A DNA stretch of 10,315 nt, from positions 1-10,315 of the IMG/VR virus record IMGVR_UViG_2537561977_000009, one strand, 5' to 3'. Below are positions 7,609 through 10,315 of this stretch, piece after piece. A program made the position numbers and the translations under genes. The notes below the pieces were generated by a model that ran no database searches, was not told where the DNA came from, and saw only the letters and a list, made by a program, of their open reading frames with translations. Each line of letters begins with the position of its first letter. Positions within the stretch are counted from its first letter, which is position 1. The stretch comes from a virus (taxonomy: Duplodnaviria > Heunggongvirae > Uroviricota > Caudoviricetes).

Positions 7609-7799
7609 GGGCGCACCTCCGCCGTAGTTACGTATTTAACCGGGCGACCTTTCATTGAGATGGTTTCACACATCTCTGCCGCTTTCAGTTCCGCCGTTTT
7701 TCTGGATTTATAGCGACGGTGCCAGACAGATGTATCCGTACGAACTGATACATCGTTTCTGTATTCCGTCGTGGAGATGATGATTTCGTAACTAATCAT
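7605..7799 (-). CDS. Hypothetical small basic protein (64 aa)
   Basis: ATG 7799..7797 overlaps the Rha-family gene stop (ATGA), and its own stop overlaps the next start (ATGA). Product MISYEIIISTTEYRNDVSVRTDTSVWHRRYKSRKTAELKAAEMCETISMKGRPVKYV... No family recognised. Confidence 0.5.
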   Translation of the reverse strand: MISYEIIISTTEYRNDVSVRTDTSVWHRRYKSRKTAELKAAEMCETISMKGRPVKYVTTAEVRP

Positions 7800-8347
7800 G
7801 AGCGCACCGCCTTGTCAGAACCATTCAGCCTGGAATCAACAAGTGCAGCGCCAAAAACAGCATCTCCTACACGGTCGTACAGTTTGCTCGCCAGCGGAGA
7901 TTCAACGGCCTTAAGCATTGGGTAAAGCTGGCTTGTCCAGATTTGATGGATTTCACGCAAATGCAGGTATACGCCTCTGGCGTTTTGTGCGACAGATGAC
8001 ATGTCAGCCGCACCAGCTCCTGATAAGCTCCTCTCCATCTGGTTAAAGGCATTGATGTATGCCTCTTTGAACCGGGCGGCACGTTTACCAGTGAAGCCCA
8101 TAGCAAGGAAGGCGAAGCCGTCGCGGGTGATTTGGTAGCAGGGAAGTTTGCGGCCTGAAGCGTCGGTATAACCACTTAACACAAAATTGTGTTCAGCAAA
8201 TTCATCGGAGCATTCTAGGTTTCTAATTCTATCTAAAACCCGCTCATGCCGTTTAGTAAAGTAATTAGCTACTGCAAGAGATGTGGTGACAACACGACCA
8301 TTGATGATCGTAATGTCAGGGTGAGATGGGGTTGGGAAAGTAGCCAT
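7796..8347 (-). CDS. Rha-family phage regulatory protein (183 aa from the internal start; the frame is open up to an ATG at 8644, giving an alternative 282-aa form)
   Basis: Rha-domain signature ITIINGRVVTTSLAVANYFTKRHERVLDRIRNLEC...CYQITRDGFAFLAMGFTGKRAARFKEAYINAFNQME. ATG 8347 is preceded by GGAGG with an 8-nt spacer and places the Rha domain at the N-terminus, as is typical. The upstream in-frame ATG 8644 overlaps the Ant-like stop (ATGA) and would add a 99-aa Gly/Ala/Ser-rich extension. Confidence 0.6.
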   Translation of the reverse strand: MATFPTPSHPDITIINGRVVTTSLAVANYFTKRHERVLDRIRNLECSDEFAEHNFVLSGYTDASGRKLPCYQITRDGFAFLAMGFTGKRAARFKEAYINAFNQMERSLSGAGAADMSSVAQNARGVYLHLREIHQIWTSQLYPMLKAVESPLASKLYDRVGDAVFGAALVDSRLNGSDKAVRS

Positions 8348-8640
8348 GATGGCAGCCTCCGTATGCAATGGATAACTTCCACCACCGGAAACGCCAATTT
8401 CGCTGGTGGTGAACTGAGCAGGGTTGGCGTAACCGGCGCATACGGAAACCGGCGCACCTTTCGGTGCCCCCACCCAGCCCACCATAATTTGGGTATAGCT
8501 GAGTTGTAGCGACAAAAAAGACGCTAACGCGCCAATTGTCGCCGTATGCAATTCCAGGACGCCAATCCCGGCCCCCGCTTTATAAGGGGCAGAGACAGTG
8601 TAACGTCCCGAAATTGCAGAATCAATATCTTGGAGAACAA

Positions 8641-9465
8641 TCATGCAGCACCCGCCAGTTCTTTATCGTGAGTAAATTCGCCATTCCAGTTTCTCTTCAT
8701 GGGTAATGCACCTCTAAGATACTGGCGATAAATCCAGACCGCCCCTTTCTGGAGAAGAACTGGTGTGTACGAATAAAACCCTTCTTCATAACCTGAATCG
8801 ATATAGTGGTGACGTTCGGTCAGATACAGATCTCGGGCATATGCCTTTACACGCCATGCGGGGCTTCGCGATTCAGGACGCTCGTCATAAAGCCAGTTGT
8901 GAGCCTCCAGAAATGCTGTGATGCGCTGAACATTTACTCCATTAAGTTGCTTGCAGAACTGAACCGGTGTCATGCCAGGCTGGAATAAATTTTCCAGATG
9001 TTCGATGTATTGGGCCTGACGATGAACGTAACTAATTGCTCTGTTTTTAGCCTCATATTCGTCCGCCCAGGCACGGGCAGCAGCAGCCGGATCGCTAAAA
9101 TCTGGTAGGGATGCCATTGTGGTAAGACAGTAATTCCCCGTTTTACGAATTGAGGGAATTACCTCCGATGTAATCCACCGTTTAAAACGTCTTGCCTGTT
9201 TTTTTCGACTTTTGATAATCAGCGCATAGAGCCCGGATTCATTGACCAGCAAAGGCTTACGTCCCGAACCTAAGTAATCCTTATATTCGGTTTTATCTTC
9301 ATCATCGATGGACTGAAGGGAGATAGCAGTATTTGTCAGCCCCAGCGCGTTACATATATCCACGGCAAAAAACCATGGTGTTGAATCAATGACCACACTA
9401 CGAACTGATGACAACAATTCACCAGTGCTTGATTTAAAATCGAAAACTTTGATATTGTTTTTCAC
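8641..9465 (-). CDS. Antirepressor-like protein with N-terminal Bro-N domain (Ant family)
   Basis: Bro-N signature KVFDFKSSTGELLSSVRSVVIDSTPWFFAVDICNALGL...LLVNESGLYALIIKSRKKQARRFKRWITSEVIPSIRKTG, with an antirepressor-like C-terminal region. Preferred start is GTG 9465 (GGAG with 7-nt spacer). The track ORF runs to ATG 9663, but the extra 66 residues are Arg/Leu/Trp-rich and lie before the domain. Confidence 0.65.
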   Translation of the reverse strand: MKNNIKVFDFKSSTGELLSSVRSVVIDSTPWFFAVDICNALGLTNTAISLQSIDDEDKTEYKDYLGSGRKPLLVNESGLYALIIKSRKKQARRFKRWITSEVIPSIRKTGNYCLTTMASLPDFSDPAAAARAWADEYEAKNRAISYVHRQAQYIEHLENLFQPGMTPVQFCKQLNGVNVQRITAFLEAHNWLYDERPESRSPAWRVKAYARDLYLTERHHYIDSGYEEGFYSYTPVLLQKGAVWIYRQYLRGALPMKRNWNGEFTHDKELAGAA

Positions 9466-9517: not shown

Positions 9518-9789
9518 TTATTTCTGCCAACCAATAACCTGAAATAACCCCATTTTCGGGTGATACCAGCGAGTCCCTCGCGGTTCTGCTTCCTCCATAA
9601 CCCGATAAAAAGCAGCCATAAACGGTTCCACAGCAACAATCGCACGACGAGATAACAATCCATCCGGCGTCATAAATTCATGGGTATCGGTAGGGATCTG
9701 ATATGCGTTCACCAGATTGCGACATTTCGCATCTGACATACCGGTTTTTGCTTTCAGCTGGCGATATCCGGCATAGCCCTCACGAATGG
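9518..9789 (-). pseudogene. 3' remnant of a phage ORF truncated at the IS1 junction
   Basis: The frame is open from the IS1 boundary (9789) to stop TAA 9520..9518 (…IREGYAGYRQLKAKTGMSDAKCRNLVNAYQIPTDTHEFMTPDGLLSRRAIVAVEPFMAAFYRVMEEAEPRGTRWYHPKMGLFQVIGWQK). The only internal ATG (9739) has no SD. The track ORF 9518..9964 is chimeric: its first 58 codons are antisense IS1 sequence. Confidence 0.4.
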
Positions 9790-9844
9790 GGTAATGCTGC
9801 CAACTTACTGATTTAGTGTATGATGGTGATTTTAAGGTGCTTGC

Positions 9845-10120
9845 GTGACTTCCATTTCCATCAGATGTCCTTCCTGCTCCGCTACTGAAGGCGTGGTGCG
9901 TAACGGCAAAAGCACTGCCGGACATCAGCGCTATCTCTGCTCTCATTGCCGTAAAACATGGCAACTACAGTTCACTTACACCGCCTCTCAGCCCGGTACG
10001 CACCAGAAAATCATTGATATGGCCATGAATGGCGTCGGATGTCGCGCCAGTGCACGCATTATGGGCGTTGGCCTCAACACGGTTTTACGTCACTTAAAAA
10101 ACTCAGGCCGCAGTCGGTAA
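9845..10120 (+). CDS. insA: IS1 InsA (transposition inhibitor / N-terminal part of InsAB' transposase)
   Basis: GTG start 9845. 91-aa product [91 protein letters not shown] with a zinc-finger and HTH, matching IS1 InsA closely. Confidence 0.9.
10094..10104 (+). other. IS1 programmed -1 ribosomal frameshift site (A6C motif) linking insA to insB'
   Basis: TTAAAAAACTC at 10094..10104 near the insA 3' end. Reading in the -1 frame from here gives [45 protein letters not shown]..., which matches InsB. Confidence 0.8.
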
Positions 10121-10315
10121 CCTCGCGCATACAACCGGGCAGTGATGTGATTGTCTGCGCTGAAATGGACGAACAGTGGGGCTACGTCGGTGCTAAATCA
10201 CGTCAGCGCTGGCTGTTTTACGCGTATGACAGGATACGGAGGACGGTTGTGGCGCACGTCTTCGGTGAACGCACTCTGGCCACACTGGAGCGTCTTCTGA
10301 GCCTGCTGTCGGCCT
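10102..10315 (+). CDS. insB: IS1 insB' reading frame (partial; made as InsAB' fusion by frameshifting; truncated by the window end)
   Basis: The -1 frame relative to insA is open from the frameshift site to the window end, encoding ...[50 protein letters not shown]. Confidence 0.8.

Follow-up and report, generated by a model that had tools for sequence, protein, structure and literature searches.

The closest described relatives of the locus reported here are the immunity regions of phages P4 and P1 and the isrK-orf45-anrP locus of Gifsy-1. In P4, the CI RNA is encoded within eta, which is coupled to the gene upstream, and translation of eta prevents termination (PMC10111431). In the immI region of P1 and P7 (c4 RNA - icd - ant1/ant2; the c4-icd-ant system is summarised in PMC8198154), an antisense RNA carrying a' and b' segments is cut from the very transcript that it controls (PMC8198154 and textbook accounts). 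Gifsy-1 produces a processed RNA of about 80 nt and a translated orf45, whose AUG lies at nt 107 of the isrK transcript; IsrK was recognized by the authors of that study as a structural homologue of P4 seqA (PMC4825925).

The DNA analysed here, called the window, is a stretch of 10,315 nt, and we focus on positions 8348-8644. All genes around this region lie on the minus strand, coordinates being given in plus-strand numbering. The region belongs to an E. coli prophage, lambdoid and equipped with a CI/Cro-type switch, in whose early-right operon it comes just before the replication genes. Upstream of it lies a Bro-N/Ant-type gene (8641..9465, minus strand; Pfam Bro-N 1.2e-20; PHROG anti-repressor Ant). 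The mechanical ORF of this gene is open as far as 9663, and the annotations of phiP27 and E. coli NZ_CP065613 contain an equivalent CDS of 825 nt. Its TGA stop (8643-8641) and the ATG at 8644 form an ATGA overlap (8644-8641), from which an ORF of 282 codons runs to 7796. This long ORF appears in databases as an 'Ash'+Rha fusion, a protein identical to its product is annotated in E. coli (P0002), and it provides an eta-like frame through the entire RNA cassette described below. A second ATG (8347-8345), in frame with ATG 8644, opens a short ORF of 183 codons (8347->7796) encoding a Rha-family regulator or antirepressor; it is preceded at a distance of 8 nt by a GGAGG Shine-Dalgarno (SD) sequence (8360-8356).

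On the minus strand, 8348-8644 holds a known type of phage RNA switch, an immunity cassette with an antisense RNA of the P1 c4 / P4 CI type. An 88-nt C4/CI-type antisense RNA (8489-8402, minus strand) matches Rfam RF01695 with 80.7 bits, against a gathering threshold of 45, over model positions 1-87 of 87. It comprises a 17-bp closing stem, a hairpin GCACC-GAAA-GGUGC and a hairpin GCCGG...CCGGU that carries the b' segment (UCCGUAUGC, 8446-8438) in its loop, while a' (ACGCCAA, 8430-8424) is single-stranded. The minimum free energy of the RNA is -45 kcal/mol (z -3.87), and the corresponding structure is the consensus structure. The first-pass annotation had proposed a structure and covariation analysis as a check. 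With 45 distinct relatives aligned, every one of the 1215 pair cells holds a standard pair and 12 of the 27 C4 pairs show double (compensatory) changes, compared with 29-50% of cells paired in slid-partner controls, with the reservations that the loci were retrieved by a pattern that fixes helix 3, that helix 3 is uninformative for covariation and that the loci are phylogenetically dependent. This locus and thousands alike are annotated under the names 'Rha family regulator', 'peptidase' or 'ash family protein', and no RNA is marked in them; the functional unit is an immunity RNA of the C4 type that has an a'/b' specificity of its own.

The short repeats that had drawn attention to this region are parts of this cassette. 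Every listed repeat, hairpin, ORF and ATG or ATGA was found in its place: CCGTATGCAAT twice (8359-8369 and 8542-8552), AACCGGCGCA twice (8431-8440 and 8447-8456), the inverted GCATACGG(A) at 8438-8446 and the hairpin GCACC-TTTC-GGTGC at 8454-8467. The 10.3-kb window has three copies of GCATACGG, which lie together in a span of 190 nt, against an expectation of 0.27 copies, and none of 200 shuffles reached three; these repeats are real and non-random, beyond chance. A second triplet was missing from that first list: ATTGGCGT is present at 8566-8559 and 8398-8391 (minus strand), with its complement ACGCCAA at 8430-8424. The upstream targets are a1 (8566-8559), in a hairpin with loop AUUGGCGU, and b1 (AUUGCAUACGG, 8552-8542). 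The downstream targets, a2 (AUUGGCGU, 8398-8391) and b2 (AUUGCAUACGGA, 8369-8358, overlapping the SD), form with the SD a region (8356..8398) that would pair with a' and b'; the predicted duplexes have energies of -19.2 kcal/mol (b'/b2) and -10.3 kcal/mol (a'/a2). The two b copies are 183 nt (61 codons) apart and therefore lie in one reading frame.

The downstream target bears directly on the internal start. GCAUACGGAGG includes the SD of ATG 8347, and the placement of b2 on this ribosome-binding site is kept in relatives, with the end of b2 invariably in the SD. P4 shares the start context GGAGGCTGCCATCATGGCT, and there the same SD-ATG-GCT follows b2 and opens the 65-codon kil. The suspicion that a repeat copy overlapping the internal ribosome-binding site hints at regulation of the short start is supported: this repeat is the b2 target of the C4 loop. 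Among 103 unique related loci, we counted 26 variants of b' and 10 of a'. A complement of at least 8 nt to the locus's own b' is found downstream in 99 of the 103 loci and upstream in 88, whereas between loci with different b' such a complement occurs in only 22 (downstream) and 11 (upstream) of 9634 pairs. Across relatives, the C4 loop therefore co-varies with both its upstream and its downstream targets, and the 26 loop/target specificities constitute a ready set for tests of RNA-RNA recognition.

Upstream of C4, the cassette carries an IsrK / P4 seqA-like leader RNA (8514..8590, minus strand) composed of a 5' hairpin (8590-8571), the a1 hairpin, b1 and an intrinsic terminator. The Rfam isrK model (RF01394) matches this leader over its full length with 60.2 bits (gathering 50). 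The c4-a1b1 model (RF03163, gathering 46.7) gives 25.9 bits here and 44.1 bits, also below its threshold, in P4 itself. A terminator scan identified the Rho-independent terminator GGCGC-GUUA-GCGUC followed by six U, with its stem-loop at 8533-8520 and the U-run extending to 8514. With C4 and, by its isrK match, the leader above the Rfam gathering thresholds, the structured regulatory RNA that the first-pass annotation had considered is borne out. A putative sigma-70 promoter (8597..8625, minus strand) precedes the leader, with a -35 element TTGATT (8625-8620), a 17-nt spacer and a -10 element TACACT (8602-8597), and the transcript would start near G8590. A sigma-70 scan of 8250-8800 called no promoter at a threshold of 9/12, because TTGATT-17-TACACT matches at 8/12 only; it is on conservation and homology with isrK that this candidate promoter rests. 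Of the 33 aligned relatives that share this spacing class, 30 have both hexamers without change, homology between loci starts exactly at the promoter, and non-coding versions of the cassette have promoter-like hexamers at the same position.

The order of elements is the same as in the P4 immunity region (PLE - seqA - CI RNA - seqC - kil, nested in eta), and P4 itself gives a C4-family match of 74.9 bits and an isrK/seqA match of 60.8 bits. In both loci, a short ORF follows closely on seqC/b2, and a long ORF in the same frame extends over promoter, seqA, CI and seqC; both are matched by Phage_ASH, and both cassettes lie upstream of replication genes. P4 differs in that the short ORF encodes a 65-aa Kil/Icd-like peptide instead of a 183-aa Rha-family protein, in its a'/b' specificities and in the spacer from a1b1 to C4, which is 84 nt shorter here; moreover, the host element of the window is a lambdoid prophage with a CI/Cro-type switch. 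As in P1/P7 immI, b2 is placed on the ribosome-binding site of the first ORF that follows, and the controlled gene is of the antirepressor type; nested in-frame starts are found there too (ant1/ant2; PMC8198154 and textbook accounts). In P1, however, the c4 region forms a leader that is not translated, and the target is separated from ant by icd, a small coupling ORF. In the window, the Rha start itself carries the target, and an open frame encloses the entire cassette. Non-coding cassettes of Stx phages and APSE have the same promoter-isrK-C4-target-SD layout before an Ant or Bro-N gene, and APSE-7 is annotated with C4, a' and b'. These copies have stops in all three frames and occupy an intergenic gap, while the copy in the window lies in a continuous ORF.

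The gene that would be placed under C4 control is the short Rha ORF. The Rha domain (Pfam PF09669 / TIGR02681; 104.6 bits, above cut-off) covers residues 120-205 of the long form and is complete in the 183-aa short form, and distant Rha homologues align from about residue 11-12 of the short form. A dual start giving two isoforms, as had been suggested, is probably correct, since the internal SD-ATG-GCT is a conserved start shared with P4 kil; the conventional N-terminal protein domain that a long isoform might be thought to carry found no support.

We consider it likely that an immunity cassette of the P1 c4 / P4 CI type, acting by antisense RNA, is here placed in a frame that is translated through, with genes nested as in P4 eta/kil and Gifsy-1 isrK-orf45-anrP. 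By homology with P1, P4 and Gifsy-1, we infer the following course from the lysogen to escape. In the lysogen, a constitutive promoter within the first codons of the long ORF would produce an untranslated transcript, a fraction of which would end at the terminator as a small RNA, the remainder being processed to stable C4 RNA. C4 would pair with a2 and b2 and block initiation of the short Rha, and this pairing would probably also cause premature termination before the replication genes; the a1/b1 RNA may compete for C4. When transcription instead arrives from upstream, in the early-right operon and via the Bro-N gene, ribosomes would start anew at the ATGA overlap and go on translating across the cassette. 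Such translation would hold the RNA unfolded and Rho off, and upstream transcripts would therefore escape immunity and yield the long protein. Since translation through the cassette would keep these transcripts free of immunity, the open frame appears to serve as a ribosome track and not to encode a folded 'Ash' domain; that the long frame is translated, and that this prevents termination, is presumed by analogy with P4. Because the host is a lambdoid prophage with a CI/Cro-type switch, RNA immunity would be a second layer of control, not the sole immunity. That a lambdoid E. coli prophage should have a P4/P1-style RNA layer controlling an antirepressor-type protein is relevant to induction and to superinfection exclusion among related prophages, Stx phages included.

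It could be argued that the short Rha ORF alone is translated and that the open frame is a by-product of RNA conservation that is never read: selection on the amino-acid sequence is lacking, the cassette also exists in non-coding versions and ATG 8644 has no strong SD of its own. We regard this as unlikely in view of how the frame behaves in relatives. The long frame is open in about 90% of related loci. In 76 unique cassettes, the Ash frame has 8 stops while the other two have 112 and 198, hence stops are some 14-25 times rarer in the long frame, and this holds at hypervariable sites as well, the b' site having no stop in the Ash frame and 7 in each of the others. Moreover, the listed spacing classes of open-frame loci differ from that of the window by multiples of 3. 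The frame also reaches up to 500 nt or more upstream of the conserved RNA, typically from an ATGA overlap with an upstream ORF, which recurs in many contexts, this window included; in one class it is open even across an out-of-frame kil-like gene. Finally, the equivalent regions of P4 eta and Gifsy-1 orf45 are reported to be translated. The region does not, then, merely happen to lack stops, as the first-pass annotation had put it: the frame is systematically kept open in relatives, and its stop-free state is no accident.

Another reading is that of a plain long protein, an Ash-Rha regulator with two domains in which residues 1-99 are a genuine Ash domain; what looks like RNA would then be secondary and the internal ATG a mere methionine. 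Pfam PF10554 (Phage_ASH) indeed matches residues 15-109 of the long form with 60.7 bits (gathering 26, E 2.2e-16), thousands of database proteins are annotated as Ash+Rha, and the frame, which is conserved, is probably coupled to the gene ahead of it. We hold this reading to be highly improbable. Codon-position variability is flat across the cassette, and a coding pattern, with a 2-3-fold third-position excess, appears only from ATG 8347 onward. In the Rha-linked subset, pN/pS is 0.67 for the extension and 0.35 for Rha, a suggestive comparison but one confounded by mosaicism and RNA constraint; the alternative frames were therefore added as a control. The value is 0.84 in the Ash frame, not below those of the two closed frames (0.67 and 0.80), against 0.35 for Rha. 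At 0.67-0.84, below 1, weak selection on the peptide may nevertheless act on the extension. Protein-level conservation with normal codon substitution had been named beforehand as the mark of a simple long protein; the extension, though conserved, does not show substitutions of a coding pattern, and covariation of the stems forces radical residue changes. An AF2 model based on a shallow alignment (25 sequences) gives pLDDT <50 for residues 1-111, the folded region beginning at residue 112, and 55-84 for the Rha part. Thus, for Phage_ASH as a protein domain, neither purifying selection on amino acids (codon position, pN/pS) nor a predicted fold (AF2) was found.

The distribution of the cassette argues against an Ash domain in the same way. 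Stx2 phage II and APSE-7 carry the same cassette with stops in all three frames, it is also found midway in unrelated ORFs such as those of Ayreon and SfV (orf37), and the borders of homology, 8626 and about 8323, differ from the start of the ORF. The P4 namesake of Phage_ASH, the old 'cI' ORF that PF10554 also matches, itself overlies the CI RNA. The equation of Ash with P4 epsilon (PMC8628076) was rejected, because P4 epsilon matches PF25738 and it is this ORF over the CI RNA that matches PF10554. The methodological lesson is that a conserved open frame with a significant Pfam match need not mean a protein domain.

A different emphasis is suggested by Gifsy-1, where, as here, an IsrK-type RNA with a terminator is followed by a RNA of about 80 nt (STnc1160), an ORF starting from its AUG and an antirepressor-like gene (PMC4825925). 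Positive control could accordingly dominate, with the terminated IsrK-like RNA opening an inactive mRNA structure in trans and starting translation at an orf45-like ATG, here fused in frame to Rha, C4 repression not being the main event. The in-frame ATG at the 5' end of C4 (8483..8485, Met54) would be that start: it matches by position the first AUG of orf45, as we infer, its alignment columns (A5 T6 G7) are invariant in relatives and PHROG 4908 profiles begin there. The isrK match above gathering and the intact terminator speak in the same sense, as does the fused orf45-anrP of 287 aa reported in S. dysenteriae (PMC4825925). We find it very doubtful that this is the main event. No SD is evident ahead of ATG 8485, whereas the one at ATG 8347 is perfect and covered by b2 in 99 of 103 loci. 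The location also differs, being the early-right operon here and the vicinity of antQ in Gifsy-1, where orf45 stops just before anrP and is not joined to the upstream gene; the frame in the window has no such stop, as in the S. dysenteriae fusion, and runs up to the stop of Bro-N. Furthermore, the Gifsy-1-type mechanism is compatible with C4 repression: the two are not exclusive, because IsrK, when it pairs with a'/b', takes the other side of one and the same interaction. As for a chance ORF or a plain intergenic spacer, the former was rejected on the frame statistics (8 stops vs 112 and 198) and the latter because the sequence is highly conserved and structured.

With the translated-through immunity cassette as the preferred reading of this locus, a wider proposal may be made, which we hold to be evenly balanced between true and false: that the 'Ash domain' at large (PF10554; PGAP 'ash family protein') is the conceptual translation of a mobile promoter-isrK-C4-target RNA cassette and not a protein domain, and that its frame is stop-free and indel-locked to multiples of 3 only for ribosomes coming from an upstream gene, which would make transcripts immune to the antisense RNA, across at least 8 unrelated downstream effector genes. 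The idea that closed-frame cassettes are those without a preceding gene drew no clear support from the six closed loci with enough flanking sequence. Were the proposal true, Ash would illustrate a general situation in which translatability is selected and the peptide is not, and studies taking PF10554 as a protein marker would in fact detect an RNA element.

The effectors found downstream of the cassettes are Rha, Kil/Icd-like, phiP27-type, Ayreon/SfV-type and integrase-linked genes, among others.

This part of the window has its genes on the minus strand. The long ORF (8644 to 7796, minus strand, 282 codons) begins with an ATG that shares bases, as ATGA, with the TGA stop of the Bro-N/Ant ORF before it, and a GGAGG stands 8 nt before its in-frame ATG at 8347, from which a short form comprising Rha could be made. 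The first-pass annotation had hesitated between an N-terminal extension and a repeat-rich RNA region for the 99 codons before this internal start, and each repeat that it listed there was indeed found in place. GCATACGG is present in three copies in the 10.3-kb window, all within 190 nt (0.27 expected; three or more in 0 of 200 shuffles). A second repeat set of the same layout had gone unlisted: ATTGGCGT occurs twice, at 8566-8559 and 8398-8391, and its complement stands at 8430-8424.

An Rfam scan of the window returned three matches, all on the minus strand: a full-length C4 antisense RNA (RF01695, 8489-8402, 80.7 bits, gathering threshold 45), a full-length isrK (RF01394, 8590-8514, 60.2 bits, gathering threshold 50) and, below threshold, c4-a1b1 (RF03163, 8603-8551, 25.9 bits, gathering threshold 46.7). 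The hairpin noticed in the first pass is C4 helix 2, and the AACCGGCGCA pair forms both arms of C4 helix 3, whose loop, termed b', is the inverted GCATACGGA. This loop has two targets, the direct CCGTATGCAAT copies, of which b1 lies upstream and b2 downstream. In the second set, the two ATTGGCGT copies correspond to a1 and a2, and the single-stranded segment complementary to them to a'. b2 (GCAUACGGA, 8366-8358) overlaps the Shine-Dalgarno GGAGG (8360-8356) of ATG 8347. The C4 RNA folds into the family consensus structure (-45 kcal/mol, z -3.87), and the predicted duplex energies are -19.2 kcal/mol for b'/b2 and -13.7 kcal/mol for b'/b1. The isrK-like part ends 3' in a terminator hairpin followed by U6 (8533-8514), and position 1 of the isrK model lies six bases after putative promoter hexamers, TTGATT (8625-8620) and TACACT (8602-8597), separated by 17 nt. 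Among the 33 aligned relatives that share the window's spacing class, 30 keep both hexamers unchanged. The promoter scan did not call TTGATT-17-TACACT, which matches at only 8 of 12 positions.

Relatives were retrieved with a pattern built from helix 3 and the a' region, yielding 120 IMG/VR loci. Across 45 distinct C4 sequences, all 1215 of 1215 pair cells held standard pairs, and 12 of 27 pairs had changed on both sides; when partners were slid by 1-3 columns as a control, pairing fell to 29-50%. Helix 3, being fixed by the search pattern, is uninformative in this test. The 103 unique loci contain 26 b' loops and 10 a' segments. Perfect complementarity over 8 nt or more to the locus's own b' was present downstream, at the Shine-Dalgarno sequence, in 99 of 103 and upstream in 88 of 103; when the b' came from a locus bearing another loop, such a complement occurred in only 22 (downstream) and 11 (upstream) of 9634 comparisons. 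The three-way co-variation of b' with its upstream and downstream targets is what an immunity-specificity determinant should show. We consider it very probable that an RNA cassette is present and controls the 8347 start.

The P4 seqA-CI-seqC region with kil and eta, c4-icd-ant of P1 and isrK-orf45-anrP of Gifsy-1 are systems of the same kind. Unlike in these, the effector directly on the target is a 183-aa Rha protein, all parts are fused into one frame, and the setting is lambdoid. The kind of system is thus already known, and what is added here is quantitative evidence that a frame is kept open across it without selection on the peptide.

Could the extension nevertheless be a selected peptide? 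Pfam places Phage_ASH at residues 15-109 of the long form (E 2.2e-16) and Rha at residues 120-205. In P4 itself, the Phage_ASH match is the old 137-codon "cI" ORF, exactly over the CI RNA (Rfam C4, 74.9 bits), thus "Ash" is the translation of a C4-type RNA cassette. Variability across the cassette is flat over codon positions (0.70, 0.77 and 0.75 bits for positions 1-3), position 3 being flat or lower within each subgroup; from the internal ATG on, the third position is 2-3 times more variable than the first two (for example 0.207/0.136/0.473 and 0.104/0.105/0.309). The pN/pS of the Ash frame (0.84) is no lower than that of the two stop-containing frames (0.67 and 0.80), and that of the Rha part is 0.35. 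AlphaFold2, run on a 25-sequence alignment, gave residues 1-111 pLDDT below 50 and no secondary structure, which is weak evidence given so shallow an alignment, and showed clear helices and strands from residue 112 (pLDDT 55-84 in the Rha part). Alignments of distant Rha proteins, those of Paenibacillus, Pseudomonas, Vibrio and Lactobacillus phages, begin at short-form residue 11-12, so the Rha family in general lacks such an extension. P4 epsilon belongs to another family. The P4 stretch concerned is 7888-8584 of our locus L004. A published survey of P4-like satellites took PF10554 as its epsilon profile ("Ash, also called epsilon"; PMC8628076), but in current Pfam P4 epsilon matches PF25738, and we rejected the equation of Ash with epsilon on this ground. 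PF10554 matches the ORF over the CI RNA, and the survey's epsilon marker therefore reports the RNA immunity region.

The open Ash frame is no accident. Set relative to the C4 pattern, it runs without a stop through the cassette and far past its ends in about 90% of loci, and the other two frames meet stops within 12-140 nt. In 76 unique cassettes it contains 8 stops, the others 112 and 198; the hypervariable b' site has none in the Ash frame and 7 in each of the others. The spacer between a1b1 and C4 has several lengths, and those listed for the open-frame loci inspected are all a multiple of 3 away from that in the window, evidence that is partly circular since a spacer of any other length would shut the frame. 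The frame is joined to at least 8 different downstream genes and usually begins by an ATGA overlap with whichever ORF is upstream. Hardly any variation is seen in the internal start context, GGAGGCTGCCATCATGGCT, at which the 65-codon kil of P4 begins, the long frame there being eta. In nine IMG/VR loci (L006, L008, L014, L021, L041, L045, L054, L067 and L116) a kil/Icd-like ORF of 63-81 codons starts at the conserved SD-ATG, shifted by 1 nt from the frame of the long ORF. The long frame still stays open through it as an alternative frame and runs into the next gene; in L006 and L008 it meets no stop for about 1.2 kb after C4. The cassettes of Stx2 phage II and APSE-7, the latter annotated as isrK and C4, have stops in all three frames and lie in an intergenic gap before an Ant or Bro-N gene.

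That the frame exists for translation-through is the reading we lean towards, with some reserve. The sequences themselves show the RNA elements with their complementarity and co-variation, b2 lying on the SD, the conserved short start, the maintained long frame and the ATGA junction; the mechanism that follows is inferred. By analogy to P1 (PMC8198154), P4 (PMC10111431) and Gifsy-1 (PMC4825925), the internal promoter would produce an untranslated RNA in the lysogen, part of which would terminate as an IsrK-like RNA, while read-through RNA would be processed to C4. Pairing of C4 with a2/b2 would block the short Rha start and promote termination, and the a1/b1 RNA may act as a competitor for C4. 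On transcripts of upstream origin, ribosomes would continue over the ATGA junction and across the cassette, so that these transcripts would escape control and yield the long protein. A third start is possible at the in-frame ATG 8485 (Met54), which would match by position the first AUG of Gifsy-1 orf45, a translated ORF whose fusion to anrP is reported in S. dysenteriae (PMC4825925).

The cassette itself appears to be the mobile unit. Matches to phage Ayreon (96%), phiP27 and many E. coli prophages extend over about 8323-8626. One border lies just ahead of the putative -35 and the other about 8 codons after ATG 8347; neither falls at the ORF start. Against the closest E. coli prophage (98.6%), homology stops at 7620 and restarts at 8322, a mosaic joint with breakpoints that were alike in phage and E. 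coli searches; the Rha body is thus a swapped allele, the RNA cassette and Bro-N gene being shared. The first 8 or so codons after the internal ATG (8323-8347, minus strand; MAT-x-P-x-x-S/Q) travel with the cassette and are common to otherwise unrelated products (P4 Kil, the Ayreon/SfV type, Rha). This sharing suggests that the regulatory unit includes the start of the coding region.

The window is a lambdoid E. coli prophage, with the minus-strand order Roi/Rha-like, Bro-N, long ORF, two small ORFs, O-like, DnaC-like, helicase, ninH, Q, four tRNAs and lysis genes. By this order the cassette belongs to the early-right operon and precedes the replication genes, as P4 CI precedes alpha. With a second Rha/Roi-like gene (9518-10225, minus strand) upstream of the Bro-N gene, the region has three consecutive Bro-network genes. 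Two overlapping minus-strand ORFs (4207-5618 and 5594-6481) make up the replicative helicase gene, a split explained by a 1-nt gap near 5037 relative to E. coli NZ_CP065613, and the DnaC-like gene has an internal stop; both point to a defective prophage or a sequence error. The tRNA cluster (2779-3085, minus strand) is flanked by the Q antiterminator gene on one side and the lysis genes on the other, and its members are annotated as Gly, Thr, Arg and Ile in a near-identical E. coli prophage.
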